Shown here: in pieces, positions 9,904 to 53,848 of the stretch | Position numbering within the stretch: the first letter of the stretch is position 1 | How the letters are laid out: every line of letters starts with the position of its first letter | Origin: an uncultured Candidatus Bathyarchaeia archaeon | GTDB lineage: Archaea; Thermoproteota; Bathyarchaeia; 40CM-2-53-6 | Length of the DNA stretch: 59,889 nt | NCBI GenBank assembly: GCA_964549795.1 | Contig: CAZJVZ010000001.1 | Coordinates: 1 to 59,889 of the forward strand | Direction: 5' to 3' | Translations under genes and position numbers: made by a program | Notes under the pieces: generated by a model | Databases searched by the model: none | Told to the model about the DNA's origin: nothing | The model's input: the letters and a program-made list of their open reading frames with translations, nothing else

Positions 9904-10842
9904 CTAGGTGACACGAAGGCCTTTCGTTTCGAGATAATCACGTACGTCTAGTGCGGCCCGGCATCCATCACCCGCGGCTGTCACAGCCTGCCTGTAGTGG
10001 AAGTCACGTACGTCTCCTGCCGCGAAGACTCCCCCCACGCTAGTTGCAGTCGCATGGCGTGTGATGACATACCCTTTCTCGTCCAGCTCGATTTGGCCCT
10101 GGAAGATGGCGGTGTTGGGTTGGTGGCCAATCGCGACGAACACACCATCGCACTTGATCACTTCCTGTTTCCCGGTCTTCACATTTCTGACACGGACACC
10201 TTCAACCTTCTGTCCGCCAAGAATGTCTTCCACAATAGAATCCCAAACGAACGATATCTTGGGATTCTCGAAGGCACGCTCTTGTAGGATCTCACTAGCG
10301 CGAAGCTTGTCACGCCGGTGAACTATAGTCGCATGGTTCACGAAGCTCGTGAGGAAGATGGTATCCTCGAGTGCCACGTCGCCGCCTCCGACAGTGACCG
10401 TGTCCTTTCCGCGGAAGAAGAATCCATCACATGTTGCGCAACTTGAGACTCCTCGTCCTCGAAGGCGCGTTTCAGACTGAAGCCCAATCCATTTCGCAGA
10501 GGCGCCAGTTGCGATGATCACGGCATTCGCTTCGTATGCCTCGCTACTGGTCTTGACTTTGAAGGGGGGGCTCTTGAAGTCAACTTCTCTCGCGTCGTCT
10601 TGAATGAACTCTGCGCCGAATCGTTCTGCTTGTTTTCTCATTCGTTCGATTAGTTGGGGACCGAGTATTGGCTGCTCGAAGCCTGGGAAGTTTTCAACTT
10701 CTGTAGTCAGCATCAGTTGGCCGCCTGGTACTGCGCCTGCGACTACCAGTGTCTTGAGCAACGCACGGCCAGAGTAGACTGCAGCAGTGAGCCCTGCTGG
10801 GCCAGAACCGATCACAATCACGCCGTATACCAATGGATCCAT
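9904..10842 (-). CDS. trxB: Thioredoxin-disulfide reductase
   Basis: 312 aa. FAD motif GSGPAGLTAAVY, redox-active CATCDG, C-terminal GVFAAGDV. Confidence 0.9.
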   Translation of the reverse strand: MDPLVYGVIVIGSGPAGLTAAVYSGRALLKTLVVAGAVPGGQLMLTTEVENFPGFEQPILGPQLIERMRKQAERFGAEFIQDDAREVDFKSPPFKVKTSSEAYEANAVIIATGASAKWIGLQSETRLRGRGVSSCATCDGFFFRGKDTVTVGGGDVALEDTIFLTSFVNHATIVHRRDKLRASEILQERAFENPKISFVWDSIVEDILGGQKVEGVRVRNVKTGKQEVIKCDGVFVAIGHQPNTAIFQGQIELDEKGYVITRHATATSVGGVFAAGDVRDFHYRQAVTAAGDGCRAALDVRDYLETKGLRVT

Positions 10843-10864
10843 CCCGGTCGAGGCGTAAGTGAAT

Positions 10865-12235
10865 TCATGAAGTAACGAGGTCTACTTGAGGTTTCACTGC
10901 TCTTAGGCGTTCCCATAGCTCGGCCGCGGCGGTTTGGGCTCTACCTTCAATCTCCACCTGATCCACGGTCGTGACGGCGCGATCTCTTACTAGGATCTCC
11001 CCGTCGACAATGACTGTCCTGACATCGCGCCCCTCTGTCCCATTGATTAGATGTCCAACAACGCTGTCTGAGTCGAGCGGAGTCGGAAGAACATCCGGTT
11101 TGACCAGAATCAGGTCTGCTTTCTTTCCTACTTCGATTGAGCCAAGCTGATCGGCCAGCCCATAGAGTTCGGCGCCTCTGATGGTGGCCATCTCGAGGAC
11201 TGTGTAGGCGTCGATTGCGTTGGGATCTCTGGAGACAGCTCGGTGGATCAGGTATGCCGTTCGCATGTTCTCGAATCCGTCAAAGATGTAGCCATCGTTG
11301 CCTAATCCAACAGGGATTCCCTTTCTGAGCATGCTCAGAATCGGAGCCGTTCCCACGGCGTTGAGCATGTTACTCATGGGATTATGGGCAACCTTCGTTC
11401 CCGAATTCGCAATTATGTCTATGTCGTTGTCGTTCACGTGAACGCAATGAGCAAGGACAACGTCAGGACCTAGAAAGCCAACATCTCTGAGTCGCTCAAG
11501 CGTGCGTTTCCCATAGCGCTCGATATTGTGCTGAAGATCGCCGAGACCCTCACATGTGTGAATCGTGACGGGGACGCCGTACTTGCTCGCAAGCCTCCGG
11601 GTTGACTGAATCAGCTCGTCCGTGACTGTGAAAGATGCGTGTAGACTGAAGAGCGGCATCGCCTTCGATCGCCCATTCTTCTTCACTCCGGCAGCAAAGC
11701 GGGCATTCTCGCGGACGCCTCGCTCCCCTTCTTCCCTCGAATGCCTCTCGGTCGCTTCAAACGCGACGAGGCCTCGTATTCCCACCTCATCCACAGCCTT
11801 GGAGATCTTGTCGAGAACGCCATCGATTGAATTCGGCCCGGAGTAGGTGTCTGCGAAGGTTGTCGTGCCCGTCTTCAGAAACTCCAAACATCCGACTTTG
11901 GCACTCGCGTACGCGTCCTCAAGAGTGAGGTTCTCATCGACCGGCCACCAAACACGCTGGAGGATCTGCGTGAAATCAGATGGCGGATGAATCTCAAGCT
12001 TCGCTCCCTGTAAGAGTATTCCATAGAGGTGAGTGTGGCTGCATATGAGGCCAGGCATCACAACGCCACCTGATGCGTCGACGACCTCGTCAGCCTTCCA
12101 GTCTCTCATGATGTCACTGGTCCTTCCGATAGCTCTGAACTTGCCGTTCTCTATGATTGTTGAGTGATCGTCGAGTATCCGACGATTGGGATCCATCGTG
12201 ACGATAGTGCCCCCCTTCACCAGAATCGATGTCAT
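10865..12235 (-). CDS. ssnA: SsnA-like aminohydrolase (amidohydrolase superfamily)
   Basis: The ORF extends to 12265, but ATG 12235 (MTSILVKGG) with AGGAAG upstream is the likely start. Long colinear similarity to E. coli SsnA as I recall it (MPGLICSHTHLY..., DF..L...WW..D..L, FE.T.R, ENARFA, HASFTV). Confidence 0.75.
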   Translation of the reverse strand: MTSILVKGGTIVTMDPNRRILDDHSTIIENGKFRAIGRTSDIMRDWKADEVVDASGGVVMPGLICSHTHLYGILLQGAKLEIHPPSDFTQILQRVWWPVDENLTLEDAYASAKVGCLEFLKTGTTTFADTYSGPNSIDGVLDKISKAVDEVGIRGLVAFEATERHSREEGERGVRENARFAAGVKKNGRSKAMPLFSLHASFTVTDELIQSTRRLASKYGVPVTIHTCEGLGDLQHNIERYGKRTLERLRDVGFLGPDVVLAHCVHVNDNDIDIIANSGTKVAHNPMSNMLNAVGTAPILSMLRKGIPVGLGNDGYIFDGFENMRTAYLIHRAVSRDPNAIDAYTVLEMATIRGAELYGLADQLGSIEVGKKADLILVKPDVLPTPLDSDSVVGHLINGTEGRDVRTVIVDGEILVRDRAVTTVDQVEIEGRAQTAAAELWERLRAVKPQVDLVTS

Positions 12236-12358
12236 ATCGGGCTTCCTACCAGCTCCTTCGAGCACTCAAGCTAATGATCTTAACCTTAACAAGCGTAGAC
12301 GCACATCTCTAACAGTCAGAGTGCCCATCTGATCCTCGTCGGTCAGGTCGGATCCCAA

Positions 12359-13729
12359 TTGGAAGGTAAGCAAGACACGTCGTCTCTTCTCATCAAGAAT
12401 GGCACCCTCGTCCTTGAAGACAAGACCGCACACGCAGACGTGCTGACCCAAGACGGCAAGATCACGAAGATCGCCAAGAAGATCGCTGCAACGGCGGACC
12501 AAGTCGTGGATGCCGAAGGCAAGTTCGTCCTCCCAGGCATCATAGACGTACACGCCCACGTAGGCGATCCCGAATTCGCTCAACGAGAGGATTTCACCAC
12601 AGGAACACAGGCCGCGGCGGCCGGCGGGGTCACCACCCTCATCGACATGGTACTGAGAACCCCAGTGGATACGCCTGAAGCGGTCAAGGAGAAGATCGAC
12701 AGAGGGACTCGACAAGGAATCGTGGATTTCTCTCTTCACGGAGGAATGATGAGTTCAACAAACATTGGAAACATCGAGGCCCTGACCCAGATTGGAGTCT
12801 TCTCCTTCAAGGCTTTCATGTGCGCTCCTTACTACATCGACAGAGCAACTCTGCTCGCGCTGATGAAGGCCACTGCGAGATTCCACGCGATCACTAACGT
12901 TCACGCAGAGGATGAGCAGTTGAGCCAGCAGCTCATGGTCGAGCTGAAGAGAGCACGGCGTGTCGACCCAATCGCGCACAACGAATCAAAGCCCAATGCC
13001 GTCGAAGAGAAAGCCGTCAGAGAAGCAATCGAACAAGTGGACGCCGCAAGAGGCAAGCTGCACATTTCACATATGTCCACGAGCGAAGGCGTCGGCCTGA
13101 TCTCAACAGCCAAACGAAGGAAATCGAACGTCACAGCTGAGACGTGTCCACACTACTTGACGCTCACAAGAGCCGACGTGTTGAAACTCGGACCATACCT
13201 GAAGATGAGCCCTCCGCTGAAGACCGAGGCCGACGTGCTCGCCTTGTGGCATGGACTGGCCAATAGAACAATCGACATGATCTCGTCTGAACATGCGCCT
13301 GGAGAAGCTGACGAGAAAGAGATTGGATGGGAGAACATCTGGGACGCTTGGGGCGGAATACCCAGCATAGAAACGATGCTCCCCATCGTCCTCAGTGAGG
13401 GGGTCAACAAGAATCGCATCACGATACGGCGAGCAGCTCAAGTTCTATCTGAGAATCCTGCTAGGAGATTCGGACTCTATCCTCGAAAGGGTCACATTGC
13501 AGTCGGTGCTGACGGTGACTTCACTATCGTTGATCTGTCGGCTGAGAGGAAAGTGAAAGCGAGCGAATTGCACTACAAGGTCGGCTGGACCCCTTATGAG
13601 GGATGGGTCTTCAAAGGCTGGCCGACAACAACGATAGTCCGAGGCCAAGTTGTGGCCAAAGACGGCCAGATCTTGGCGAAAGGAGGGTTAGCGCAATTCG
13701 TTCCGATGAAGATGCGGGAAGCACGGTAA
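12359..13729 (+). CDS. Cyclic amidohydrolase (hydantoinase/dihydropyrimidinase/allantoinase family)
   Basis: 456 aa, TTG start. Metal motifs PGIIDVHAHV, carbamylated-Lys context SFKAFM, VHAED, HISHMS, ETCPHYL, SSEHAP. Subfamily not resolvable by eye. Confidence 0.85.
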   Translation: MEGKQDTSSLLIKNGTLVLEDKTAHADVLTQDGKITKIAKKIAATADQVVDAEGKFVLPGIIDVHAHVGDPEFAQREDFTTGTQAAAAGGVTTLIDMVLRTPVDTPEAVKEKIDRGTRQGIVDFSLHGGMMSSTNIGNIEALTQIGVFSFKAFMCAPYYIDRATLLALMKATARFHAITNVHAEDEQLSQQLMVELKRARRVDPIAHNESKPNAVEEKAVREAIEQVDAARGKLHISHMSTSEGVGLISTAKRRKSNVTAETCPHYLTLTRADVLKLGPYLKMSPPLKTEADVLALWHGLANRTIDMISSEHAPGEADEKEIGWENIWDAWGGIPSIETMLPIVLSEGVNKNRITIRRAAQVLSENPARRFGLYPRKGHIAVGADGDFTIVDLSAERKVKASELHYKVGWTPYEGWVFKGWPTTTIVRGQVVAKDGQILAKGGLAQFVPMKMREAR

Positions 13730-13730
13730 C

Positions 13731-14321
13731 ATGATATCGTTAGTCATCCTAGCAGCGGGCAAATCAACAAGAATGAGAGAGAACAAGCTGCTTCTGAAGC
13801 TCGATGGCGAGACCCTGATCCAGCACGTCGTAAAGACCGCAAAGAAGTCCAACGCCGACGAGGTCATCGTCGTGCTCGGACACGAAACTGAGAAGGTCAG
13901 GGAGCAACTCGTGAGGCTCGACTGCAGGCTAGTTGTCAATGAGAGTTACGTGAAAGGCCAGAGTGAAAGCGTCAAAGTGGGGTTGACTGTTGTCGCGAGC
14001 AACGCAGAAGCCGTGATGATTCTTCCTGCCGACGTTGCACTTGTGGACGAACAATCCATCAACAGCGTCATAGACGAGTACAGGAAGTCCCACAGCCCCA
14101 TCGTGATAGCTTCGCACAAACATCAGAGTGGGCACCCAATTCTCTTGGACAGAGCGCTCTTCCAAGAAACCTCCCGAATTGATGAGAATACGTTCGGGCT
14201 GAAAGCAGTAATCAATCATCATCGGTCGGAAGTCAAGTATGTCGAAGTTGGCACTGAGAACGTTCTAATCGACATCGACACTCGGGAAGAATTCGACAGA
14301 TACTTCCGCGCGCTAACTTAA
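13731..14321 (+). CDS. mocA: MobA/MocA-like nucleotidyltransferase (molybdenum cofactor cytidylyltransferase-like)
   Basis: 196 aa. N-terminal LAAGKSTRM...NKLLL signature. The ATG sits 1 nt after the upstream TAA. Lies next to xdhC. Confidence 0.75.
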   Translation: MISLVILAAGKSTRMRENKLLLKLDGETLIQHVVKTAKKSNADEVIVVLGHETEKVREQLVRLDCRLVVNESYVKGQSESVKVGLTVVASNAEAVMILPADVALVDEQSINSVIDEYRKSHSPIVIASHKHQSGHPILLDRALFQETSRIDENTFGLKAVINHHRSEVKYVEVGTENVLIDIDTREEFDRYFRALT

Positions 14322-14331
14322 TCTCATCGCA

Positions 14332-15213
14332 ATGACTAGCGATCCATGCGCACTGCGTGAACCAATCGATTGGCAGGAAGGGCTCGGGATGCGTGACGTC
14401 CTAGAAAGAATCAACAAACTGGCGAACGAGGGAAAGACTTTCGCTGTCGCTACAATTGTGAGCCATACCGGTTCGGTGCCGAGGCGCGTCGCAAAGATGG
14501 TCATCGAGTCTGACGGAGCCACCGTCGGCACGATTGGCGGCGGATGTGTCGAGAACGAGGTCGCTGCCCAAGCGCTCAAACTTCTCAAGAATGGGGAGAA
14601 AGGTGTTCACGTGAGTAGCTACAACCTCGTCGAGGAAGAGTTCGATGGTGTAGGAATGAACTGCGGCGGGAAGATTGACGTAGCAATAGAGATCATGGAA
14701 CAAACAGTGAAGCTCGTGATAATCGGAAGCGGGCATCTGGCACAAGCGCTGAGTACAATGGCAAAGATGCTCGACTTCGAGATCGCTGTCGTGGATCCGA
14801 TGGCCAAGAAGGAGAGCTTCCCCGAAGCCGCGCAGGTCGTGAGCGAGTTTGTTGAAAAGGGACTTCCGAAGATCAATGTCGATCAATCAAGCTACGTCGT
14901 GATACTTACTAGGCACAAGGATGACATCCCTGCACTCAAGAGTTCACTCAAGACAAATGCGGCATACATTGGAATGATAGCGAGCCGAAGACGCGCCGCG
15001 CTTGTCTTCGACCAACTGTTGAAAGAGGGTTTCAACAAGGACCAGCTTCGACGAGTTTACTCTCCCGTTGGTCTTGACATAGGCGCCGAGACACCTGAAG
15101 AAATCGCAATGAGCATCCTTGGTGAGATAGTCAAGCTCAGAAGACTCGGGCAGGAGCACGAAGCGGCCTCCAAGAAGCTCCAGTTCCGAGGAGCCAAGAC
15201 GGCCGAGGAATAA
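14332..15213 (+). CDS. xdhC: XdhC/CoxI-family molybdenum hydroxylase maturation factor
   Basis: 293 aa. N-terminal XdhC_CoxI block (FAVATIVSHTGSVPRRVAKMVI...GTIGGGCVE) and C-terminal Rossmann block (KLVIIGSGHLAQAL...VVDP). Confidence 0.85.
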   Translation: MTSDPCALREPIDWQEGLGMRDVLERINKLANEGKTFAVATIVSHTGSVPRRVAKMVIESDGATVGTIGGGCVENEVAAQALKLLKNGEKGVHVSSYNLVEEEFDGVGMNCGGKIDVAIEIMEQTVKLVIIGSGHLAQALSTMAKMLDFEIAVVDPMAKKESFPEAAQVVSEFVEKGLPKINVDQSSYVVILTRHKDDIPALKSSLKTNAAYIGMIASRRRAALVFDQLLKEGFNKDQLRRVYSPVGLDIGAETPEEIAMSILGEIVKLRRLGQEHEAASKKLQFRGAKTAEE

Positions 15214-15278
15214 TCGCTTCACCAAACCCCCCAACTGGACGACACTCTTAACAATTCGCGGATCCGTCAGAGACGGAT

Positions 15279-15731
15279 TTGAATAGGACAGATGGCGTGA
15301 CAATGGCGGTCGGCGGATTCGTTGACAAGAATCACAAGCCGACGATGAGGGAAATGTGGGACTCTCTCGGCTCAAAGAGGGAACTGTGGGATGGACTGAT
15401 CCGATTCGTCGAAGAGGACTGTCGAGCCAAGAGCGACTTCGCATTCTATGGGGTGAATTACGGGTGGGCAATGCGCTTCCGGAAGGGAGGAAAAGCTCTC
15501 CTATCATTGTACCCCGGGAAAGACACCTTCGTGGCGCAAATCGTTCTCGGTGAAGCTCCGGGAAGGAAAGCGTCGCATCTGGCGCTTGGTAGCAACGTCC
15601 GGAGAGTTTTTGAGAATACGCGACCACTTGCTGACGGCCGCTGGCTCTTCATAAGAGTCAATTCCAAGAAGGACGTGAGGGACTGCAGAAACCTGCTGGC
15701 GCTCAAGTCAGAATCGGCCAAGAACAAGTGA
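15279..15731 (+). CDS. DUF3788-like protein
   Basis: 150 aa (ATG at 15301 is the more likely start). FYGVNYGWAMRFRKGGKALLSLYP block as I remember for DUF3788. Function unknown. Confidence 0.5.
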   Translation: MNRTDGVTMAVGGFVDKNHKPTMREMWDSLGSKRELWDGLIRFVEEDCRAKSDFAFYGVNYGWAMRFRKGGKALLSLYPGKDTFVAQIVLGEAPGRKASHLALGSNVRRVFENTRPLADGRWLFIRVNSKKDVRDCRNLLALKSESAKNK

Positions 15732-15770
15732 GAATCAAGAACTGACGTTGGAGCAGGATCGCTGTCATGA

Positions 15771-17063
15771 TTACGGCGCAGTCTGCGGCCATCTTCGCCG
15801 TCGAGGCAGCAACACGACCAATGACGTCGAGAGTCCGGATACTATGGCAAGCGTTAGGAAGATCGTGGGCAAGAGCGAGAGATTGTTTCCAACCATCAAC
15901 CCGACCACGACAGGTCCAATGGAATTGCCGCCTAGTACTCCGATGCCCCACACGATCGAGTTCGACAACGACAGGAAATCCGTTGGCACCGAGTCAGCCA
16001 CAGCCGAGAGGAACACAGGGTAGCTACTGTAAGTGAAGAAACCGAAGAATGCGAGACAGGTCACAGACACAACCGGGTTCGAGAGCGTCATCAGATAGAG
16101 AATTATCGTCAGGCTCTGTCCGAGCGTATTGACTGCAACGGACCCTACTCTGTGGAGATCTGAGAGTCGACCGAAGATGATTTGTCCGGGCACACCTAGC
16201 ACGATCGCAATCATCATGATCACGCCGACGCCGAAATCGAACGAGTACTGTTGGACTTGCACGATGAATACTGATAGGAAGCTCACGACGCCCTGGCCGA
16301 ACGTGCCTCTGATAATTGCGATTGTCGTGAGTACAAGAATGTTGATTCTGGCCGACCGACCCATTGAAGTTTTCTTCGCCGGGCCACCGAGTCCTTCCGC
16401 TTTCTTATCTTCAAATGCTGTAGAATGATTCTTTGCCGAGTTCTCGCGGCGGTTTCGGTTGTTTCCAATTGGGAAGAGCCCTATCAAAGCTACAGGGATC
16501 AGCCCCAACAATCCAAGGACGATGACTCCATATGGCAAGTTGAGGGCAGCGATCAGAACCACAACGAGGGTCGGGTAGAGTGCTCGTCCTAGGCTTCCCA
16601 TTGCACCATTGAGTCCCAGTGCAATGCCCGTTCTAGAGGATGGGTAGGTTTGACTGAGGATCGTTCCGCCTATTGGATGGCACACACTGGAACCCAAGCC
16701 CCCAATGGCCGCGGACAGTACCAGCGCAGGGTACAGATCCAAAGGCAGCCAGGCGCGCACGTTGCCTGTGGTGACTGCCCAACCCGTTCCCATAACACCG
16801 GCGGCCATCAAGACAAGCCCGATCACTATGAGAGCGCTGTTACGCTTGAGCCGGTCCGACAGATGACCCACAACAGGGCTTCCCATGACTGACGTGATGT
16901 TCCACATGGCAGCAACGACGCCAAGTTCGGGCGGGGCTAGCCCGAATAGCGAGAGCAACAAGGGAAAGATGGACAGTGGCACCATCGAGACACCGTCGTT
17001 GACGAAGTGGGTTAGCGAAGTGAGAATCAGCGCTCGCTTCTGAGCAGGTGTATCATAGAGCAT
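15771..17063 (-). CDS. MFS transporter
   Basis: 430 aa, about 12 hydrophobic segments, central basic loop. Starts 12 nt after the upstream orphan ORF. Confidence 0.8.
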   Translation of the reverse strand: MLYDTPAQKRALILTSLTHFVNDGVSMVPLSIFPLLLSLFGLAPPELGVVAAMWNITSVMGSPVVGHLSDRLKRNSALIVIGLVLMAAGVMGTGWAVTTGNVRAWLPLDLYPALVLSAAIGGLGSSVCHPIGGTILSQTYPSSRTGIALGLNGAMGSLGRALYPTLVVVLIAALNLPYGVIVLGLLGLIPVALIGLFPIGNNRNRRENSAKNHSTAFEDKKAEGLGGPAKKTSMGRSARINILVLTTIAIIRGTFGQGVVSFLSVFIVQVQQYSFDFGVGVIMMIAIVLGVPGQIIFGRLSDLHRVGSVAVNTLGQSLTIILYLMTLSNPVVSVTCLAFFGFFTYSSYPVFLSAVADSVPTDFLSLSNSIVWGIGVLGGNSIGPVVVGLMVGNNLSLLPTIFLTLAIVSGLSTSLVVLLPRRRRWPQTAP

Positions 17064-17075
17064 GCTATGTTCACC

Positions 17076-17642
17076 CTACTTAGATTCGTTGAAGCCGATT
17101 AGGACCGTGCCCAAGTCGGGATTGTCAGGATCCCATCCTGCCTTCCTCGAGAACTCAGAATGCACCGGAATCGTGATCGTGACAGAGACAACATCCCTCA
17201 CGCCTGGAACCTCCTCAAGCTCAGGAAATGGCAACGCCTTGTAGGTGAGTCTGAGTGGCTTTCCCTTTGCCTCAACCAGTTTGTCGCGATACAGAACCAG
17301 ACTCTTCCCAAGAAAGAGCGCTCTGGAGTCATTCGACAGTTCTTCAAGCTGGCAAGCTTGCCAGATCTCCTCGCCCACGACGCGATCGCCGTCGCAGATG
17401 ACTATGATTGGCCCTGGGGGATGACGGAGCTGCGAGGAGTGGGAGATGATCACGACGCGCTGGCGACCAAGAATGTCCTCTATTCCGGCGTTGATTAGCT
17501 CCAATCCTGGTAGCCCGAGGCGACGATTCGCATCTGTCTCAATCTGTCTTATGGACTCGCGGTCCTCGTCAGGCAGGACCCAGCAACCCACCACTCCAGG
17601 AGTGCTGACTAGCCTCTTGACCGCGGACTCTACGATGTCCAT
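17076..17642 (-). CDS. Hypothetical protein (orphan, 188 aa)
   Basis: Protein-like composition. Tightly packed between the MtrH-like gene (22-nt gap) and the MFS gene (12-nt gap). No motif I recognise. Confidence 0.5.
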   Translation of the reverse strand: MDIVESAVKRLVSTPGVVGCWVLPDEDRESIRQIETDANRRLGLPGLELINAGIEDILGRQRVVIISHSSQLRHPPGPIIVICDGDRVVGEEIWQACQLEELSNDSRALFLGKSLVLYRDKLVEAKGKPLRLTYKALPFPELEEVPGVRDVVSVTITIPVHSEFSRKAGWDPDNPDLGTVLIGFNESK

Positions 17643-17664
17643 GGAATCGTCTTCTCGGTCTGCG

Positions 17665-18570
17665 TTAGCCTATCCTGTAACGTGGATGCGTCTTCGGAAC
17701 TTGGATCTTCTTCTCAATCGGGATCTGACTGTATGCGGTGTCAACCATTACCACTGCAGGGAAGACCACGTTCGCATCGTTGATTGGACCATATAGTACA
17801 AAATCGGCACAGACTGCCGCGCTTACAGCACTCACGGAGGCAAGGCATGGTTTGACGGCTTGTTCTCCCATCTTCGTCTTCAATCCCCTCCAGAGGGCAA
17901 CCGCATTATGCGCACCGCAGCCCACCGGGAAACCAGTCTCGTTCTTGAGCTCGAACATGGCTCGAAGAGCTGAACCAAGCGTCGGGAGGTCAAGGACGCA
18001 TGTGTCAATGAGTACCTTTTCGATTCCACACTCTTGTCTCCTATCCAACAGTTCTTTGATGCAGCTGATTCGGCCTGCGCTGCTGAAATCCTTCATGTTG
18101 TAGGCGAGGAAGACGGCGCTCTTGACGCCGGAGGCTTTGACTGCATTCAGTTCGTCTGGTTTGGTGCTTGGGTTGATCGAGTTGTAGACGACGCGATCGA
18201 GGAATCCATGCTCTTTCGCGTATGCGAGGCCAGCTATTCTCATCTCCGCTGAGGGGCTGTCGATCATGATGGGTGCCTTCGTGTGATCTGCTACAAACTC
18301 GAGATGTCTTTGCATCGCAGGAAGGCTTGCCCCTACGACATCGATCATTGCAGGGTTGCCGGTTCGGTCGGACATCTCGTCCTGGGTCTTGATGAGCTGC
18401 TCAGCAGCGTCCTCATCAAAGGTGCCCACATTCTCATCTTTGACTATTCTGTGACCATGATAGAAGAGTGTTCCAACCAATACGACGGGGCGTTCTCCTG
18501 GAGCGCCTCCTATGCTGACGCCTCCGATCTGGAAGATCTTCTGTTCAGCCTTGAGATTCCACAATCCCAT
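17665..18570 (-). CDS. MtrH-family (tetrahydromethanopterin S-methyltransferase subunit H-like) methyltransferase
   Basis: 301 aa. N-terminus QKIFQIGGVSIGGAPGERPVVLVGTLFY and PIMIDSPS, VVYNSIN blocks typical of MtrH/pterin-binding methyltransferases. Confidence 0.8.
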   Translation of the reverse strand: MGLWNLKAEQKIFQIGGVSIGGAPGERPVVLVGTLFYHGHRIVKDENVGTFDEDAAEQLIKTQDEMSDRTGNPAMIDVVGASLPAMQRHLEFVADHTKAPIMIDSPSAEMRIAGLAYAKEHGFLDRVVYNSINPSTKPDELNAVKASGVKSAVFLAYNMKDFSSAGRISCIKELLDRRQECGIEKVLIDTCVLDLPTLGSALRAMFELKNETGFPVGCGAHNAVALWRGLKTKMGEQAVKPCLASVSAVSAAVCADFVLYGPINDANVVFPAVVMVDTAYSQIPIEKKIQVPKTHPRYRIG

Positions 18571-18652
18571 TACCTCTCTGATCCTAATTGTGTGCCTCCT
18601 ACGGACGAGAACGCCTCAATAAAAGCAGTTCCTGAAAACGGATTCAGAGAAT

Positions 18653-20971
18653 TCAAGGTCGCCCTTTCTTGGCTGCGAAGAGAACCCGTTCGGCAGTGAG
18701 CGGTAGCTCAAAGACTCTTGACCCGGTCGCATGCGCAATTGCATTGGCAAGCGCAGCCGCCGGCAAATCCACAGGGGGTTCTCCCATCGCCTTTGCGCCG
18801 AATGGACCTACTGCACCCGGATACTCTACAATGATCGTTTGAATCTCAGGAATGTCAAGAGATGTTGGAATGTAGTAGTCACCGAGTGTGGGATTGGCGA
18901 CAATCCCGTCCACATGAATCAACTGCTCAGTTAGGCCATATCCGAGTGCTTGGATCGTTCCTCCCTCAATCTGGCCTTCAACGGAAAGTGGGTTGATCGC
19001 GCGTCCCGCATCGTAGGCTGCCGTGATCTTGAGCGGATTGACAATTCCGAGCTCTGTGTCGACCTGTATCTCGGCGACGACGGCGCCGTATGTGTACTGC
19101 AGATAGGTGGTTCCTTGGCTGTTCTCGTTTTCGAACTCGCACTTTGGTGCACTGTAGAAGCCTGTCTCGTTGAGGCTCACGTTCTTCTTGTAGCACTCTT
19201 CGACGGCGTTCTGGAAAGTGATCGTGCGTCGTGGATGATGCGGGTGATGTATGATTCCATTCTTGATGCTCAGGTTCGAGTGGTCACATTGAAGAAGTTC
19301 ACTCGCAACATTGAGGATCTTCTCCCTCACCTTCAGAGCCGCAAGCTGTGCAGCCCTTCCACCTATCACGATGACACGTGATGCGACTGTCGGCCCAGTC
19401 TCACGGCATGACGCCGTGTCTGGCCTATCAAGCTCGAATAGATCGATTGGAAGTCCGAGCGTCTCGGCGGCTATCTGAGCAAGCCCTGAGACTGCCCCGG
19501 TCCCGTATTCAGTGAGCGCGGTTCTTAGAACAACCCTCGCGTCAGGCTTGACGAGCAGGTGGACGTATGCGTAGTCGTTTCCTTCTGGTCCGAGGCTGTT
19601 ACCGTGGTACATCAGGGCTATGCCGATTCCCCGTCGGAATACGCCTTGGTCACGACCGAACTCCGCTCGTTTCGCATACCAATCTGATGCCTCTATCGCT
19701 CGCTTGGTGCATTCCTCGAGTCCACATGCGTCGTCCACAATCTGGCTCGTAGCAGTGAGTGTTCCCGGTCTCAGCATGTTCTTGAGCCTGAGATCGAGTG
19801 GGTCCACGTCCAGCTTCTTGGCGAGTTCGTCCATTTGGCATTCGGCTGCGAAGTGAACCTGAGGGCTTCCGAATCCTCTGAATGAGCCGGCCATCGTGTT
19901 GTTCGTGTACATACAGTACGCGTCGGTCTTCACGTGCGGGATCACATAAGGTCCGGTCGCGTGAAAACATGCGCGGATGATGACTAGGGGTCCGAGCGAT
20001 GCGTAGGCTCCCGTGTCCGAGACAACCAATGCCTCCGATGCGATCAGGCGTCCGTCATTCATTGCTCCCGTTTTCAGCGTAATGACGAAAGGATGACGTT
20101 TCGTGCGGGCTATCATGGATTCCTGTCGAGTGTAGGCGAGGATTGCTGGTTTCCCCATCTTCTGCGCGACCAAAGCGGAAAGAGCGCATGTGTCAACTGG
20201 CATTTCATCTGACTTTGGTCCGAAGGCTCCACCGGTGGTTGCTTGGATCACCCTGACCTTGTCGGGGCTAACGCCCAAAACCTTGGCAACACCGGTCTGA
20301 ACGTAGTAAGGCGTTTGCATCGAACCGACACAGGTGACTGTTCCATCTCGCTCGACCCAAGCCATCCCAACCTCCGGCTCCATAGGGACCGGATCTTGGA
20401 ACTGCGTCTTGTACGTGTTCTCAATTATCACCTCGGCCTGCCGAAAGCCTTCCTTCACATCGCCCTTCCTGACTTTGAGATACTTGGCAACATTTCCGGT
20501 ATCGTGAACGCGAATGGAATCTGGCTTCATTGCCTCAACGGGGGAGAACACAGAGGGGAGAGACTCGTATTCCACTGCGACTCTGTCTGCAGCGTCTTCT
20601 GCTACCTGTGGGTCTTGGGCTGCGACTATTGCTATTGCCTCGCCCTGACATCTGACCTTGCCATTCGCTAGAAGAGGTCGGTCCGGTAGTAGTGCAAATG
20701 CTTCGTTTAGTCCTGGGATGTCTCGCGCAGTGAGGACGACTGATACGCCAAGCATCCGCTTCGCTGGTTCTGTGTCGATTCTCTTGATCAACGCATGAGC
20801 AACAGTGGATCTGACAACCTTCACGCTCAGTGCGTCCTTAGGCACGAGGTCTGATGTGTAGAGCGGGACCCCAAGCACTTTGTCCAGCGCATCAAGCCGC
20901 TGTACGCTCTTGCCGACGACTACGAAGCTGTCCGCTTCGCGAAGCTTCTGAACAAGTTCGGCCTTCGTCAA
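18653..20971 (-). CDS. Xanthine dehydrogenase-family molybdopterin-binding large subunit (set 1)
   Basis: The ORF extends to 21151 but overlaps the FeS gene. The likely start is TTG at 20971 within GCTTGA (overlapping the FeS stop), preceded by GGTGGGGGTGAG. Motifs GGAFGPK, SFRGFGSPQ, AKAMGEPP. The N-terminus aligns with the set 2 large subunit. Confidence 0.85.
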   Translation of the reverse strand: MTKAELVQKLREADSFVVVGKSVQRLDALDKVLGVPLYTSDLVPKDALSVKVVRSTVAHALIKRIDTEPAKRMLGVSVVLTARDIPGLNEAFALLPDRPLLANGKVRCQGEAIAIVAAQDPQVAEDAADRVAVEYESLPSVFSPVEAMKPDSIRVHDTGNVAKYLKVRKGDVKEGFRQAEVIIENTYKTQFQDPVPMEPEVGMAWVERDGTVTCVGSMQTPYYVQTGVAKVLGVSPDKVRVIQATTGGAFGPKSDEMPVDTCALSALVAQKMGKPAILAYTRQESMIARTKRHPFVITLKTGAMNDGRLIASEALVVSDTGAYASLGPLVIIRACFHATGPYVIPHVKTDAYCMYTNNTMAGSFRGFGSPQVHFAAECQMDELAKKLDVDPLDLRLKNMLRPGTLTATSQIVDDACGLEECTKRAIEASDWYAKRAEFGRDQGVFRRGIGIALMYHGNSLGPEGNDYAYVHLLVKPDARVVLRTALTEYGTGAVSGLAQIAAETLGLPIDLFELDRPDTASCRETGPTVASRVIVIGGRAAQLAALKVREKILNVASELLQCDHSNLSIKNGIIHHPHHPRRTITFQNAVEECYKKNVSLNETGFYSAPKCEFENENSQGTTYLQYTYGAVVAEIQVDTELGIVNPLKITAAYDAGRAINPLSVEGQIEGGTIQALGYGLTEQLIHVDGIVANPTLGDYYIPTSLDIPEIQTIIVEYPGAVGPFGAKAMGEPPVDLPAAALANAIAHATGSRVFELPLTAERVLFAAKKGRP

Positions 20972-22335: not shown

Positions 22336-22611
22336 TCATCCCCCGCTCACCGGCGGAATGACCAATACGATGTCGCCGTCTTTGAGCGGAACTGACATAT
22401 CAACTGGTTTCTGCAGCACATTGTTGATGTAAACGAAAGCGTACTCTCGAACGCGGCCTTGCTCATCAAATAGCACATTCTTTGTCACGCCGCCGTACCT
22501 TCCAGCCAAGGTTCGCAAGAGCTCGCCTAGGTTGTCTACTGTCAACGCGATCTCGCCACTTCCTGCGGCGGTTCTAAGCTCGTGAAAGAGCCTGACCTTC
22601 ACTGAAGCCAC
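22336..22611 (-). CDS. MoaD/ThiS-family ubiquitin-like beta-grasp protein (Ubl-1)
   Basis: 91 aa, GTG start overlapping the TAG stop of the upstream large subunit (TAGTG). MoaD-like pattern with C-terminus DGDIVLVIPPVSGG-stop. Ends 3 nt before the FAD subunit start. Confidence 0.7.
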   Translation of the reverse strand: MASVKVRLFHELRTAAGSGEIALTVDNLGELLRTLAGRYGGVTKNVLFDEQGRVREYAFVYINNVLQKPVDMSVPLKDGDIVLVIPPVSGG

Positions 22612-24887
22612 TATGATTTCAGCTCGTTCTTCTGCATGCGCAAGGCGTTGAACAGGCGTTCAGGCCTGATGGGTATCATGTATGACCGGACCCCAGTCGC
22701 GTCGTAGATAGCATTCGTGATCGCGGCGGCAACTGGGACTATGGCGATTTCGCCTACCCCCTTTGCTCCGAAGGGGCCCGTCTTCTCGAACGTCTCCACA
22801 GGTGCGATTTCGATGTCAGGTGCATCCATTATTGTTGGGATTAGGTAGGTTGTGAAGTTCGGCGTCTTCAGATATCCGTCCTCGATGATTGCTTCCTCGG
22901 TCAGTGCGTATCCTAGGCCCTGGACGACTGCCCCTTCGCATTGTCCTCTGAAGTTCTGCGGGTTGATCACCTTGCCCGAGTCTGGGCTTACGAGGAATCG
23001 GAGCACCTTGGTCTTCCCGGTCAGCGTGTCGACCTCAACGAGCGCTACCGCTGTTGCGTACATGAATGCCCAGTGTGGAATCTCTACGCTTCCCTCGAGC
23101 GGGCGCTCGAATCTCGGGACCTCAAATCCAGCCTCAACGTGCAGTTGACATCCCGCGCCCCACGTGCGTTGGCCAAGTAGGCTGTACGACACCCTTCTTT
23201 TCACATCGTCCTTTGCCACAACTGCGCCTTCTCGGCATTCGACCTTATCCTCAGGTTCTCTGAGCATCTGAGCCCCATGCGAGACAAGGAGCGCCCGCAT
23301 CTTCTCCGCTGCCTTGATGATCGCGTTCCCGCCAACGTAGACGGACCTAGACGCAGATGATGATCCAGTATCAGGTGTGAGTGCGGTGTCCGCAGACGCC
23401 ACGTGCACATCCTTGAATCTACAATGCAGCTCTTCGGCGGCAATCTGGGCGTAGGCTGTGACATTGCCTTGGCCCATGTCTGGGCAGCCTACGCCAATTG
23501 TGAATGTGCCGTCCTCGTTGAGTGCAATCGAGGCCGCCCCGAAGTCTGGAAGCGCGCCGAATGTGAAGCCCTTCAGCGCACAGGCGATTCCGACTCCTCT
23601 CTTGCACCACGGCTCAGGCGATCGAGCCTTATGGGCTTCTCTCTGAAGCCAGAGATCTGACTTGGACGCGACCTCCAGAGTTTCATGGATTCCTATGCTT
23701 CCAGGAATCCTGACGCCGAATGTGCTGATGTCTCCTTCTCGGATGACGTTTCGTTTCCTGATTTCCATTCTGTCTATGCGGAGTTTCTCAGCGATGATGT
23801 CCATTTGTGATTCCATGGCGAAGATTGACTGTGGGGCGCCGAATCCGCGGAATGCACCTGAGAAGCCGTTGTTAGTGTATACGCAGTACGCGTCGATGTC
23901 AACGTTGGGAATATTGTATGGTCCGCAGGAGGTTTCCATGCTGACATCTAGGATTGTGCCGCCGAGAGACGCGTAGGCGCCCGTGTCTGACACTATTCTG
24001 ACCTTGTTTGCGAGCAATCTGCCGTCTGCGCCGGCACCGGTTCGGATCGTGATAGTCACGGGATGACGTTTCAGCCCAGAAATTCCGGATTCCTCTCGAG
24101 AAAGCACCATTTTGACGGGACGTTTCGTCTTCAAAGCCAACAATGCAAGATGAATCTGGACGGTGACCTCATCCTTGCCGCCGAATGCCCCACCAACTAT
24201 GGACGAGACTACTCTGATCTTCTCGCGTGGAATCCCGAGCGCTCTTGCGATCTGAAGTTGGTCGCGGTACGGCGACTGCCCTCCAACGTAGAGGACAACG
24301 TTCCCGTTCTCATCTAGTAGCCCAACGCCGGCCTCAATCTCAAGAAACATGTGCATCTGACGGCCGGTCCGATACGTGTTCTCAACCACGACCGCGCATT
24401 TCTCAAAGGCGGATTCCGCGTCTCCGAGTCGGATGTGTCCGTGTCTGTAGATGTTCCCACTTTCATGGACTCGCGGCGACTCGGGTTTCATCGCTTCAAT
24501 TGGATCCGAAACCACCGGCAGCGATTCATACTCCACCTTGATCAAATCGAGTGCGCGTTCTGCCGTGTCAGGGTCTTCCGCTGCCACGAGCGCGACTGCA
24601 TCACCCTCATAGCGAACCTTATCCTCGCAGAGGACCGGTTGATCGGGAGTCACGATTCCGTAACGATTTGTCCCTTGCACATCTTTGTGTGTAAGAACTG
24701 CGACGACACCCGGCAAGGATTGTGCACGTGAGGTATCGATGTGTCTGATGAGGGCATGAGGGCGGCCTGCTCTCAGAACTCTTCCATACAACATGTCTTT
24801 GAAGTGAAGATCTGAGTAGAATCTCGCACGACCGGTTGCCCTGTCGAGCGCGTCAGGTTTTGTGACCTGCTTTCCAACCCAACGCAA
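22611..24887 (-). CDS. Xanthine dehydrogenase-family molybdopterin-binding large subunit (set 2)
   Basis: 758 aa. a/b-hammerhead N-terminus. Motifs GGAFGGKDE, AFRGFGAPQ, AKGVGEIA. Confidence 0.9.
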   Translation of the reverse strand: MRWVGKQVTKPDALDRATGRARFYSDLHFKDMLYGRVLRAGRPHALIRHIDTSRAQSLPGVVAVLTHKDVQGTNRYGIVTPDQPVLCEDKVRYEGDAVALVAAEDPDTAERALDLIKVEYESLPVVSDPIEAMKPESPRVHESGNIYRHGHIRLGDAESAFEKCAVVVENTYRTGRQMHMFLEIEAGVGLLDENGNVVLYVGGQSPYRDQLQIARALGIPREKIRVVSSIVGGAFGGKDEVTVQIHLALLALKTKRPVKMVLSREESGISGLKRHPVTITIRTGAGADGRLLANKVRIVSDTGAYASLGGTILDVSMETSCGPYNIPNVDIDAYCVYTNNGFSGAFRGFGAPQSIFAMESQMDIIAEKLRIDRMEIRKRNVIREGDISTFGVRIPGSIGIHETLEVASKSDLWLQREAHKARSPEPWCKRGVGIACALKGFTFGALPDFGAASIALNEDGTFTIGVGCPDMGQGNVTAYAQIAAEELHCRFKDVHVASADTALTPDTGSSSASRSVYVGGNAIIKAAEKMRALLVSHGAQMLREPEDKVECREGAVVAKDDVKRRVSYSLLGQRTWGAGCQLHVEAGFEVPRFERPLEGSVEIPHWAFMYATAVALVEVDTLTGKTKVLRFLVSPDSGKVINPQNFRGQCEGAVVQGLGYALTEEAIIEDGYLKTPNFTTYLIPTIMDAPDIEIAPVETFEKTGPFGAKGVGEIAIVPVAAAITNAIYDATGVRSYMIPIRPERLFNALRMQKNELKS

Positions 24888-24923
24888 CTCACCTTGGACT
24901 GAAGTGGATCCGGCTATTTTCCA

Positions 24924-25166
24924 TCACCGGCCTCCTGTTACTGGGGGAAAGACGAGGAGTTCGTCGCCGTCTGTGAGTGCGATGTGCTTGTCGAGACGTA
25001 CTCCGTTTCGGACAACGTAGAGGTACACCTTGTCAAGTATCGGGAGGCTGTCGATTGCATCTTGAGTGGTCGCGCCTTCACGTAGGTCCAACTCAAGCTC
25101 GTCCTTCTCGAGAGCTTGAGGAGAGTACGCATAGAGCTTGACTCGGACCCTCACGGCTTCTCCCAC
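24924..25166 (-). CDS. MoaD/ThiS-family ubiquitin-like beta-grasp protein (Ubl-2)
   Basis: 80 aa from ATG, or 76 aa from the GTG of a GTGA stop/start overlap with the FAD subunit. C-terminus DGDELLVFPPVTGG-R-stop. Confidence 0.65.
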   Translation of the reverse strand: MGEAVRVRVKLYAYSPQALEKDELELDLREGATTQDAIDSLPILDKVYLYVVRNGVRLDKHIALTDGDELLVFPPVTGGR

Positions 25167-26038: not shown

Positions 26039-26050
26039 GCTTGATCTATC

Positions 26051-26515
26051 CTAAGGCTTGCGTGCTGCCTGCTGGACTGCTCGAATGATGGTCGTGTAAC
26101 CTGTGCATCTGCATAGGTTACCCGCGAGCGCCGTCTTGATGTCCTCAACACTTGGGTTGGGATTGCGGGTCAGAAGTGCCTCAGTTGAGACAATGAGCCC
26201 CGGAGTGCAGTGACCGCACTGCACAGCTCCACTTTCCACAAACGCCTGGTGTACACGATCAGGGAGACCATCCTTCATGAAACCCCCAGATGTAACAATC
26301 TCTGCCTCTTCAACTTGCGATATCAATACTAAGCATGAAAGCACAGGACGCCCGTTCATCAGTACAGTGCAAGCGCCGCACTCTCCCTTCCCGCAGTCCT
26401 CCTTCGGACCCGTCACATTCAATTTGCCTCGCAAGACTTCGAGGAGAGTGTGGGCTGGAGGAGCAGATACGGAGACTTCTTGTCCGTTCAGTCTGAACGA
26501 GAATCGTTTCTCCAA
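26051..26515 (-). CDS. [2Fe-2S]-binding small subunit (set 2)
   Basis: 154 aa, TTG start. CGKGECGACTV and CGHCTPGL...CRCTGY. Confidence 0.9.
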   Translation of the reverse strand: MEKRFSFRLNGQEVSVSAPPAHTLLEVLRGKLNVTGPKEDCGKGECGACTVLMNGRPVLSCLVLISQVEEAEIVTSGGFMKDGLPDRVHQAFVESGAVQCGHCTPGLIVSTEALLTRNPNPSVEDIKTALAGNLCRCTGYTTIIRAVQQAARKP

Positions 26516-33308: not shown

Positions 33309-33463
33309 GGTCCGTCAATGCACGTGTCATCGATCATCTATTAGATGCATACGACGCAGCTCGACGTGTTCGGCGCTCCGGGGGGCAATCCCATTGCTTT
33401 AGGTATCAGTGACGCCTCATCATCACACTTGGACGGTAACTTGGTGCTCTAGTGGGGGCGGGC

Positions 33464-53775: not shown

Positions 53776-53848
53776 CTCTCTCGCATGTTCGTCAATTGTT
53801 GAGACTGCTGTTCGCGGAATCTCAAGTTGTTCGCGGTGAATCTCAGAC

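Follow-up and report, generated by a model that had tools for sequence, protein, structure and literature searches.

A methyltransferase gene of the MtrH family, a gene for a 188-aa protein (the orphan) and a gene for an MFS transporter lie close together as a single unit, preceded by a conserved TATA-like box of its own, in the genome of a freshwater or sediment Bathyarchaeion. The window in which they lie, that is, the whole stretch of DNA analysed, spans 59,889 nucleotides. The orphan is a member of a small family confined almost entirely to Bathyarchaeia, and its confidently modelled fold is predicted to be alpha/beta and has no neighbour in the PDB. The trio has probably been added to a heterocycle-catabolic cluster. 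Taken as a whole, we tentatively read the locus as one in which the orphan is an accessory or partner that serves methyl-H4MPT/corrinoid transfer together with MtrH, the trio being joined to a cluster for N-heterocycle catabolism.

The mtrH-orphan-MFS unit

As the first-pass annotation had it, the mtrH-like gene (17665..18570, 301 aa), the orphan gene (17076..17642) and the MFS gene (15771..17063, 430 aa) follow one another on the minus strand, with gaps of 82 nt between Mo-hydroxylase large subunit 1 and mtrH, 22 nt between mtrH and the orphan and 12 nt between the orphan and the MFS gene. The same order is found in ~35 distinct loci whose orphans are 62-100% identical. Spacers in this trio clade are near-invariant, at 22 nt between mtrH and the orphan and ~11 nt between the orphan and the MFS gene, which stands directly 3' of the orphan in every locus. 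The transporter matches MFS_1 over residues 16-378 (E=2.7e-37, 128.9 bits) and has 12 predicted helices, and against NCBIfam it gives weak subfamily matches that reach no subfamily cut-off.

The first gene encodes a methyl-H4MPT(pterin):corrinoid methyltransferase of the MT2 type. Its product falls into PF02007 (E=2.4e-93, 313 bits against a cut-off of 22.8) and exceeds the cut-off of NF002142 (338 against 287 bits), and since its TIGR01114 score lies just below the cut-off (269.9 against 271.4 bits), we do not call it an equivalog of the Mtr complex. Neither the window nor any related locus contains another gene of the mtrEDCBAFGH operon, which speaks against membership of an MtrA-H complex. 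Among PDB sequences the protein matches 8z9u_B (1.6e-88), on which we found no literature, and MtgA (6sj8, 1.1e-56). The pterin-ring residues are S32, D75, D102, N129, D194 and N227 in MtgA and T32, D103, N129, D196 and H229-N230 in MtrH (PMC7154762, PMC12774963). Their retention, which the first-pass annotation had wanted checked, is borne out by T34, D77, D104, N130, D189 and H221-N222 of the window protein, and these site residues are invariant across 37 orphan-linked MtrHs. The THF-tail residues of MtgA are absent, as expected of an H4MPT-type enzyme. Outside the trio clade the nearest MtrH relative is 72% identical, and its gene adjoins genes for a canonical B12-binding corrinoid protein and for URO-D. 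A mirror-tree correlation between MtrH and the orphan (r=0.86-0.90) was set aside as evidence, since values of this size arise from common phylogeny by itself and the comparison included no control gene.

Upstream of mtrH lies a BRE/TATA-like box, TGCTTTTATTGAG (18615..18627, minus strand; clade consensus TGCTTTATCGAAG), which recurs with at most one mismatch in 29/29 distinct mtrH upstream regions, 24 of them with an exact match 41-58 nt before the start. The box is also kept at trio loci without upstream hydroxylase genes. On its 3' side a CCGTAG element (18599..18604, minus strand) is kept in the anchored upstream-region alignment, and could possibly be an initiator or a 5' UTR element. The box pattern occurs once in the whole window, about as often as chance predicts there, and thus gives no evidence of a regulon common to the trio and the hydroxylase genes. 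An own promoter for mtrH, together with co-variation with methanogenesis or Wood-Ljungdahl genes elsewhere, had been named beforehand as grounds for doubting a link to hydroxylation, and the predicted promoter, which answers to the first half of this condition, does weaken that link. An Rfam scan of 15000-19500 gave no credible match. The sequencing runs that contain the window sequence are DNA metagenomes, with no RNA runs among them.

A Mo-hydroxylase array upstream of the unit

The hydroxylase array to which the trio was said to be appended is real and comprises two sets of FeS, FAD and Mo subunits upstream of the trio, all on the minus strand. Large subunit 1 (18653..20971; Ald_Xan_dh_C, MoCoBD_1, MoCoBD_2) had been listed as an over-extended 832-aa ORF; homologues and public gene calls place its start at 20971, giving 771-772 aa. 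It is accompanied by the FeS subunit (20968-21450; Fer2_2/Fer2) and the FAD subunit (21457-22332; FAD_binding_5/CO_deh_flav_C) of set 1. Set 2 (22336..26515) consists of a large subunit (22611-24887), a FAD subunit (25151-26038) and a FeS subunit (26051-26515), all assigned by Pfam, with two ThiS-like genes (22336-22611 and 24924-25154) assigned from public gene calls.

On the other side of the trio, Pfam and public gene calls identify DUF3788 (15279-15731), XdhC (14332-15213), a MocA-like cytidylyltransferase (13731-14321) and an allantoinase/hydantoinase-like amidohydrolase (12359-13729) on the plus strand, followed by an SsnA-like amidohydrolase (10865-12265; NCBIfam SsnA 405 against a cut-off of 444) and thioredoxin reductase (9904-10842) on the minus strand. 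Genes of this segment (9904..15731) exceed the cut-offs of TIGR03178 (365 against 357.85 bits) and TIGR01292 (400 against 343 bits), and the segment is syntenic in four related loci (L001, L011, L022, L064). The FeS, FAD and Mo-pterin subunits, together with the XdhC and MocA maturation genes, mark an XDH-family Mo-hydroxylase cluster. Scores stay below the substrate-specific equivalog cut-offs (pucD 685 against 784, XdhA 548 against 780), and the best PDB matches of large subunit 1 are nicotinate dehydrogenase (3hrd) and 4-hydroxybenzoyl-CoA reductase (1rm6), not XDH. These matches do not fix the hydroxylase substrate.

The order XDH-MtrH-orphan-MFS, whose conservation had been proposed as a check, is kept in related genomes: a large subunit of the double XDH-family array lies at most 2.4 kb upstream of the trio in 25/27 loci with enough sequence. 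In the other two (L015, L047) the trio stands among unrelated or housekeeping genes, hydroxylases being absent. L015 retains a remnant of a large-subunit gene upstream of the trio, which implies that the array was lost secondarily, rather than that the trio was independent from the start. The same eight-gene double array also occurs without the trio in sister Bathyarchaeia, beside adenine deaminase. The downstream flank of the trio has been rearranged repeatedly while the hydroxylase adjacency has persisted, which suggests selection for adjacency. The proposal that the trio belongs to the array thus stands as far as conserved adjacency goes and fails as a strict dependency: the box of its own, the two loci with the trio alone and the arrays without it indicate that the link to hydroxylation is not obligatory.

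It is conceivable, and in our judgement unlikely, that the trio has no functional tie to the hydroxylases, its position reflecting inherited gene order, and that it serves general C1 or cofactor metabolism, for example methionine or methyl-H4MPT homeostasis, or a route in which the transporter, MtrH and the orphan import and process a pterin or cobamide vitamin. The separate promoter-like box, the trio among housekeeping genes and the sister-lineage arrays that function without it all fit such an independence, as does the presence of core methionine synthases and Mer next to orphan relatives. Cofactor metabolism is also brought to mind by the MobA/CobY-like nucleotidyltransferases and the 6-TM membrane protein that stand beside the orphan in L105-L109 and L077, and by an N-terminal Cys-rich domain, PF04071, on some of the longer family members, a domain otherwise known from archaeal CbiH. 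Inherited order is harder to reconcile with a large subunit that stays close in 25 of the 27 loci through repeated downstream rearrangement, and with the remnant in L015.

The orphan family and its genomic contexts

Searches of Pfam, of NCBIfam and, with the single sequence as well as with a profile, of PDB sequences returned no significant match for the orphan. It has 165 homologues at E<=1e-3, and the family amounts to 176 clusters among 1.84e9 representatives; 15/16 genome loci lie in Bathyarchaeia MAGs. The AF2 model is of high confidence (pLDDT 91.8), and the structure search proposed by the first-pass annotation, a Foldseek run against the PDB, yielded no significant match, with no neighbour at E<0.3. 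A repeated weak Foldseek match to epoxyqueuosine reductase was dismissed as noise (TM<=0.27, probability<=0.06).

The earlier observation that the orphan lacks the DxHxxG motif and is no canonical corrinoid protein was confirmed: the motif is absent by direct reading of the sequence, PF02310 and PF02607 are absent, profile-profile comparison with a corrinoid-protein alignment gives a probability of 0.4%, and Foldseek finds no match to any B12-binding or MtrA structure. Descent as a divergent B12-binding protein, LLM or TM1506 was likewise rejected (hhalign probabilities <=0.4%). Only G16, E35, N51, G53, G90, E91/92, T179 and G183 are kept across the wide family. Its His and Cys residues are clade-specific, so there is no obvious universal cobalt or zinc ligand.

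What characterises the family is its company. Orphan relatives nearly always lie inside corrinoid methyltransferase clusters, with MttB, MtmB, URO-D, core-MetE, corrinoid protein, RACo or MtrH, or directly behind F420-type LLM/Mer genes. Corrinoid protein is present in L005 (corrinoid protein-MtrH-RACo-(TM1506)-orphan), in L018 (corrinoid protein-MtmB-orphan-URO-D) and in L093, where it occurs together with RACo, URO-D and the orphan. MttB accompanies the orphan in L076 (MttB-orphan<MtrH<RACo), where a corrinoid protein is absent in 12.5 kb, and in L105-L109 (membrane protein-orphan<MtrH<RACo/MttB). In four loci (L029, L069, L072, L073) the orphan is directly 3' of core-MetE (Meth_synt_2), in L071 the pair is RACo-orphan, ~20 loci hold LLM-orphan pairs and two (L023, L024) hold Mer-orphan pairs. 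RACo adjoins orphan relatives in L005, L071, L076, L093, L102 and L105. A 221-aa ORF 5' of the orphan in L103 is a spurious, low-complexity antisense ORF. No MtgB-like ORF was found in any orphan-family locus examined, the query being limited to the primer-derived termini of the published bathyarchaeial MtgB. The suggestion that the orphan is an unconventional partner of MtrH/corrinoid systems is therefore backed by its context in many independent clusters.

The window itself holds no corrinoid protein (PF02310/PF02607), no RACo/RamA activase and no known substrate methyltransferase within its 60 kb, so that the search for corrinoid proteins and RamA-type activators that had been recommended came out negative for this stretch, and two parts of a four-component system, the corrinoid protein and the activase, are lacking there. 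The system is thus incomplete, unless the orphan supplies a missing function or partners are encoded elsewhere.

Possible roles of the orphan

Perhaps the orphan is a small new substrate-specific MT1, passing a methyl group from an imported heterocycle to a corrinoid protein encoded elsewhere, from which MtrH would transfer it to H4MPT while the ring proceeds to the hydroxylases. L005 and L006 have corrinoid protein, MtrH and RACo with the orphan nearby and no known MT1, Bathyarchaeia have a lineage-specific non-homologous MT1 (PMC10989822), and the transporter is always adjacent, with hydroxylase adjacency conserved. Against this, the orphan sits in clusters that already have the MT1s MttB or MtmB (L018, L019, L076, L105-L109), and at 188 aa it is far below the 459-504 aa of these MttB and MtmB-like proteins and the ~300 aa of bathyarchaeial MtgB (PMC10989822). 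Metal-ligand residues are not kept family-wide and ~20 members are paired only with an LLM gene, and we regard an MT1 role as clearly unlikely.

A non-catalytic helper would fit the breadth of these contexts: the orphan accompanies many methyltransferase types rather than one, and no catalytic-looking set of His, Cys or Asp is kept across the family. As a chaperone or assembly factor it could load the corrinoid or keep it protected; alternatively, it could sense small ligands or regulate methyl-transfer operons. A functional analogy is offered by MtrI, a small lineage-specific protein that binds the methyltransferase corrinoid and caps it in Mtr (PMC12774963). Fixed tight operon spacing, a mean column identity of 59% and the invariance of the polar residues E35 and N51 suit a helper no better than they suit a stoichiometric subunit or an enzyme, and no helix-turn-helix or other DNA-binding domain was detected in the orphan with Pfam or NCBIfam. 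A helper of this kind seems to us quite improbable.

The family could also be a new class of methyl or corrinoid carrier, with a fold absent from the PDB, that replaces the B12-binding partner of MtrH. In that case MtrH-orphan-MFS would amount to a minimal demethylase of two proteins that strips N-methyl groups anaerobically from imported purines or pyridines, the ring going to the Mo hydroxylases. We give this scenario a small chance.

A more appealing scenario, and the one we tentatively prefer, is that the orphan is an accessory or partner protein, hitherto unrecognised, that works at the methyl-corrinoid/methyl-H4MPT node. Within the trio it would most likely act directly with MtrH, and from the gene slot that is usual for a corrinoid protein it might supply or bind the methyl donor, or do the same for the corrinoid. 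Against this reading, the orphan occurs alongside canonical corrinoid proteins (L005, L018, L093) and alongside the established MT1s MttB and MtmB, so it is not a clean replacement of any single canonical component. The MFS transporter would import a methyl-bearing compound. With less assurance we suggest that this is an N-methylated heterocycle, whose methyl group would pass to H4MPT and whose demethylated ring might go on to the hydroxylases and amidohydrolases. A methylated heterocycle as substrate is purely conjectural, and a methoxylated aromatic compound as substrate found no support here.

Bathyarchaeia count among the uncultured archaea that are most abundant in anoxic sediments, and to our knowledge their stand-alone MtrH has long been without a defined partner and substrate. 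A conserved, lineage-restricted family found next to almost all classes of corrinoid methyl-transfer genes, as well as next to F420-type LLM/Mer, offers a concrete candidate for a missing component, whether that acts as carrier, as activator or as an enzyme on the substrate side, and its confidently predicted fold has no solved relative. The operon beside a purine-type hydroxylase cluster suggests a route for the anaerobic use of methylated N-heterocycles, which, if true, would tie the turnover of nucleic acids or alkaloids to the C1 pathway of archaea.

Comparison with known systems

Measured against MT1-CP-MT2-AE systems (D. hafniense MtgABC, M. shengliensis/A. fulgidus Mto and Ca. B. ligniniphilus MtgABC), the MtrH of the window clearly belongs to PF02007 and retains every pterin-ring residue. 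There is a precedent in a novel methyltransferase specific to Bathyarchaeia whose gene is clustered with those for an MtrH-type MT2, a corrinoid protein and a membrane protein, with no activase identified (PMC10989822). The window resembles the Ca. B. ligniniphilus cluster in that the MT2 is joined by a gene for a membrane protein or transporter and by a non-homologous protein specific to the lineage (PMC10989822). Unlike the MtgABC/Mto systems, it has no corrinoid protein, RACo/RamA or known MT1, holds the 188-aa protein in the neighbouring slot and is attached to Mo-hydroxylase genes. A stand-alone bathyarchaeial mtrH, outside an MtrA-H complex, paired with a corrinoid protein and with its substrate methyltransferase unknown, was described in 2021 (PMC7886697). 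The 72%-identical sister MtrH shows exactly that pairing, whereas in the trio clade mtrH has no corrinoid-protein neighbour and is followed by the orphan and the MFS gene.

With anaerobic purine and N-heterocycle catabolic clusters the window shares two FeS/FAD/Mo sets, XdhC, a MocA-like protein and allantoinase-like and SsnA-like amidohydrolases, and the sister arrays adjoin adenine deaminase. In the literature we found no such cluster described with a pterin methyltransferase operon, none described for Bathyarchaeia and nothing on Bathyarchaeia together with xanthine dehydrogenase. Finally, core (folate-independent) methionine synthases MesA/B/C take methyl groups from corrinoid proteins (PMC7857596). 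While the window has no core-MetE and the orphan shows no homology to MtrA, CoFeSP or B12-binding proteins, the four orphan-family loci with core-MetE place the orphan directly after it, where one would expect a methyl-donor partner.

The mtrH-orphan-MFS trio

Three closely spaced genes on the minus strand form the trio: an mtrH-like gene (17665-18570, 301 aa; Pfam PF02007 MtrH, E=2.4e-93), an orphan ORF of 188 aa (17076-17642) and an MFS transporter gene (15771-17063, 430 aa; Pfam MFS_1, E=2.7e-37). The positions and spacings reported by the first-pass annotation were reproduced, with 82 nt between the stop of large subunit 1 of the neighbouring hydroxylase (18653) and mtrH, 22 nt between mtrH and the orphan, and 12 nt between the orphan and the MFS gene. 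Its description of the orphan as unrecognisable was also borne out, as the protein matches no Pfam or NCBIfam family and lacks the DxHxxG corrinoid motif.

The closest solved relatives of MtrH are 8z9u_B (1.6e-88), D. hafniense MtgA (1.1e-56) and MtrH from the M. mazei Mtr complex (2.3e-54). When the pterin-site residues of MtgA (PMC7154762) were mapped onto the window MtrH through a HMMER alignment, all proved to be retained (T34, D77, D104, N130, D189 and N222). The THF-tail stacking residues of MtgA are not kept, and T34 and H221-N222 match T32 and H229-N230 of H4MPT-using MtrH (PMC12774963). None of the retained positions, H221 included, varies among 37 MtrHs linked to an orphan. Identity among MtrH homologues is 70-92% in the trio clade and then drops to 59% or less, the exception being P0464, a homologue outside any trio that is 72% identical to the window MtrH and adjoins genes for a canonical B12-binding protein and URO-D. 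Thus, the window MtrH is a recent relative of corrinoid-protein-dependent MT2s (the MtrH/MtgA type) and should still need a methyl-corrinoid partner. Since no corrinoid protein (CoP), activase or known substrate methyltransferase (MT1) was found in the window, the system is incomplete unless the orphan supplies such a function or partners are encoded elsewhere.

The order MtrH-orphan-MFS recurs wherever the orphan has 62-100% identity to that of the window and the sequence reaches the flanking genes. In about 35 distinct loci, mtrH and the orphan are 22 nt apart (21-23 nt, exceptions being few) and the orphan and the MFS gene about 11 nt, and a short purine-rich motif is kept ahead of the start codon in both spacers. 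The element TGCTTTATCGAAG precedes mtrH in 29 of 29 distinct sequences with at most one mismatch, 41-58 nt ahead of the start in the 24 with an exact match. The window copy, TGCTTTTATTGAG (18615-18627), is the only match in the window, where one match is about the chance expectation. A conserved CCGTAG follows the box, while the rest of the surrounding intergenic sequence is not conserved. The box is kept with or without hydroxylase genes upstream, and is intact where small reverse-strand genes, including a PIN-domain toxin gene, separate the large-subunit gene from the trio (L064:3882-4631; L042:2817-4965). We infer from this pattern that it is probably a BRE/TATA-type promoter, possibly combined with a regulator site. 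The trio is a tightly spaced unit behind a promoter-like box of its own; it consists of a methyl-pterin methyltransferase that looks functional, a transporter and, between them, a conserved partner gene.

A pattern scan covering one genome for each species recovered 16 loci encoding an orphan relative, 15 of them labelled Candidatus Bathyarchaeia. The sixteenth lies on a contig with the label Methylomirabilota (L021, DATKOK010000086.1), which bears a crenactin-like gene and has probably been mis-binned. A second public label also looks wrong, likely through mis-binning or contamination: that of a contig labelled [Eubacterium] cellulosolvens that holds a bathyarchaeial XDH-MtrH-orphan-MFS cluster (L030, GCA_975972385.1). 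Sequencing runs containing the window sequence are freshwater, lake-sediment and wetland metagenomes, with no RNA run among them.

Linkage to the molybdenum hydroxylase array

Upstream of the trio lie two complete sets of FeS, FAD and Mo-subunit genes and two small ThiS/MoaD-like ORFs (22336-22611 and 24924-25154, minus strand), in the order FeS-FAD-ThiS-Mo-ThiS-FAD-FeS-Mo. The mechanical ORF of large subunit 1 (18653-21151, minus strand, 832 aa) runs about 180 nt into the FeS gene; its start lies at 20971 according to homologues and public gene calls, giving 771-772 aa and a 4-nt overlap with the FeS stop codon. Downstream of the trio, on the opposite strand, are genes for DUF3788, XdhC, a MocA-like cytidylyltransferase and an allantoinase/hydantoinase-like amidohydrolase, and further downstream an SsnA-like amidohydrolase and thioredoxin reductase. 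More purine/nucleoside-related genes lie at 52500-59889, namely a second SsnA-like amidohydrolase (56564-57952) and an IMPDH-like gene (58051-59487), alongside two more MFS genes; Bmp-type nucleoside-binding proteins are encoded just past the window end on a longer public contig (L028). Two large ORFs lack a Pfam family, one of 546 aa (7581-9221, plus strand) and one of 839 aa (30144-32663, minus strand), the latter with only faint HerA/CedB/TraD-type ATPase matches in NCBIfam.

Upstream sequence is long enough in 27 loci. In 19 of these the large-subunit gene lies 82-120 nt upstream of the trio; in six others it lies within 2.4 kb, separated by small insertions, for example of a PIN toxin gene, so that the XDH-MtrH-orphan-MFS order is conserved in 25 of 27. 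Since the genes beyond the MFS gene differ between loci (DUF3788-XdhC-MocA in some, DUF1294 and others elsewhere), the adjacency has been maintained through rearrangements. It is possible that the trio has no functional tie to the hydroxylases and instead serves C1 or cofactor metabolism. In L015 and L047 it sits amid unrelated housekeeping genes. In L015 a short Mo-subunit gene remnant lies upstream of the trio (L015:8747-8962, 58% identity over 9% of the protein), which otherwise has no hydroxylase genes within 10 kb; this suggests that L015 lost its array secondarily. A promoter of the trio's own, combined with co-variation with methanogenesis or Wood-Ljungdahl genes, was named beforehand as a sign against the link, and the promoter-like box agrees with the first half of this; the conserved adjacency speaks for the link.

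Trio-linked large subunits are 78-90% identical, and the next homologues 64% or less. Three distant Bathyarchaeia of the latter group (L113-L115) carry the identical eight-gene array without the trio, which makes 'appended' an apt word for the latter. In L113 and L114, XdhC directly follows the array and adenine deaminase and a luciferase-like (LLM) gene precede it; in L115 only the LLM gene does. The array is therefore older than the trio and purine-linked by context, the trio having probably been added in one lineage, and the hydroxylases do not need it. LLM genes flank hydroxylase arrays in L001 as well as in L113-L115. The best PDB matches of the large subunit, nicotinate dehydrogenase and 4-hydroxybenzoyl-CoA reductase, rank above xanthine dehydrogenases, and no NCBIfam equivalog cut-off was reached; the sequence by itself does not single out a substrate for the hydroxylases.

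The orphan family and its neighbours

The orphan has 165 homologues at E<=1e-3 in an index of 5.8 billion proteins, all unnamed or 'hypothetical', and a profile search of 1.84 billion representatives yielded only 176 clusters. Nearly all are stand-alone proteins of 180-200 aa; a few longer relatives have a Cys-rich PF04071 domain at the N terminus, with a score at the Pfam threshold. The AlphaFold model, built on a 51-sequence alignment, is a confident alpha/beta protein (pLDDT 91.8, pTM 0.82), but the fold comparison proposed earlier matched nothing in the PDB (Foldseek, best E=0.3, TM 0.27), nor did sequence or profile searches of the PDB. Profile-profile comparison was negative for a canonical corrinoid protein. 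Many residues are invariant in the close clade (H68, an LRHPPGP loop, E92, R119, Y134 and an FPE motif). The wide family keeps only G16, E35, N51, G53, G90, E91/92, T179, G183 and F184, with no universal His or Cys ligand. That the orphan is a chaperone or regulator is a less likely alternative, with which this lack of a family-wide ligand set agrees.

Gene neighbourhood, labelled in 112 fetched loci, is the strongest available functional evidence, though it is evidence from context only. Outside the trio clade, the orphan occurs as CoP-MtrH-RACo-(TM1506)-orphan (L005-L007, L032), as CoP-MtmB-like-orphan-URO-D/MtaA-like (L018, L075), with CoP, RACo and URO-D (L093), divergent from CoP (L098, L100, L102), after core-MetE (Meth_synt_2; L029, L069, L072, L073) and after RACo (L071). 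In L076, an amino-acid permease gene, MttB and the orphan meet convergent MtrH and RACo, and a corrinoid protein is missing from the 12.5 kb. In L105-L109, three MttB genes, a MobA/CobY-like gene, a 6-TM membrane protein and the orphan meet convergent MtrH and RACo or MttB. The gene before the orphan there (L105:5244-5960; L106-L109) encodes a conserved polytopic membrane protein of about 240-250 aa without a Pfam match, a second, different transporter-like partner of the family, in a divergent clade with a MobA/CobY-like nucleotidyltransferase. An F420-type LLM gene (TIGR03557 family) lies directly upstream of the orphan in about 20 loci, and a Mer-like gene in two (NF002619, 302 bits versus a cut-off of 276). 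A Mer-like F420-type LLM gene also lies in the window at 33452-34480 (plus strand), at a distance of 15 kb from the trio, and matches the L023 Mer-like gene at 7.8e-42 in phmmer. The recurrent neighbours all make, carry or consume a corrinoid/H4MPT methyl group, or are LLM/Mer-type enzymes.

Another scenario is that the orphan is a small new MT1. It is found with corrinoid proteins in some clusters and with MT1s in others, and it occupies the slot expected for a corrinoid protein in L076, in L105-L109, in the core-MetE pairs and in the window trio; it replaces no single canonical component cleanly. According to primers in the supplement of PMC10989822, the bathyarchaeial O-demethylase MT1 MtgB_2 begins MKFGMFIY, a start reminiscent of LLM proteins; if MtgB_2 were LLM-like, the LLM-orphan pairs could be pairs of MT1 and orphan.

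A more appealing, albeit tentative, scenario is that the orphan assists or partners methyl transfer at the methyl-corrinoid/methyl-H4MPT node; in the trio it would act together with MtrH on a compound that the MFS transporter brings in. We consider this possible, at somewhat less than even chances. Weaker still is the step by which the compound would be an N-methylated heterocycle, with its ring going on to the neighbouring hydroxylases and amidohydrolases. The pathway of import, demethylation and hydroxylation proposed in the first-pass annotation is partly supported: the conserved order and the MtrH residues speak in favour, and the separate occurrence of trio and array against.

Comparison with known systems

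Literature searches on Bathyarchaeia/Bathyarchaeota and xanthine dehydrogenase yielded no description of such a combined hydroxylase and methyltransferase cluster. The nearest known systems are the MT1-CP-MT2-AE methyltransferases, in which CP is the corrinoid protein and AE the activating enzyme (RACo/RamA type), and the CoP-MtrH pair seen in Bathy-6 (PMC7886697). The closest precedent for the window is the cluster of Ca. B. ligniniphilus, in which a Bathyarchaeia-specific non-homologous MT1 is combined with an MtrH-type MT2, a corrinoid protein and a membrane protein, the activase being unidentified (PMC10989822). Unlike that cluster and the CoP-MtrH couple, the window lacks a corrinoid protein and instead has the orphan and an attachment to molybdenum hydroxylase genes. 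This is a known kind of methyltransferase system in a new form, built around a new protein family.
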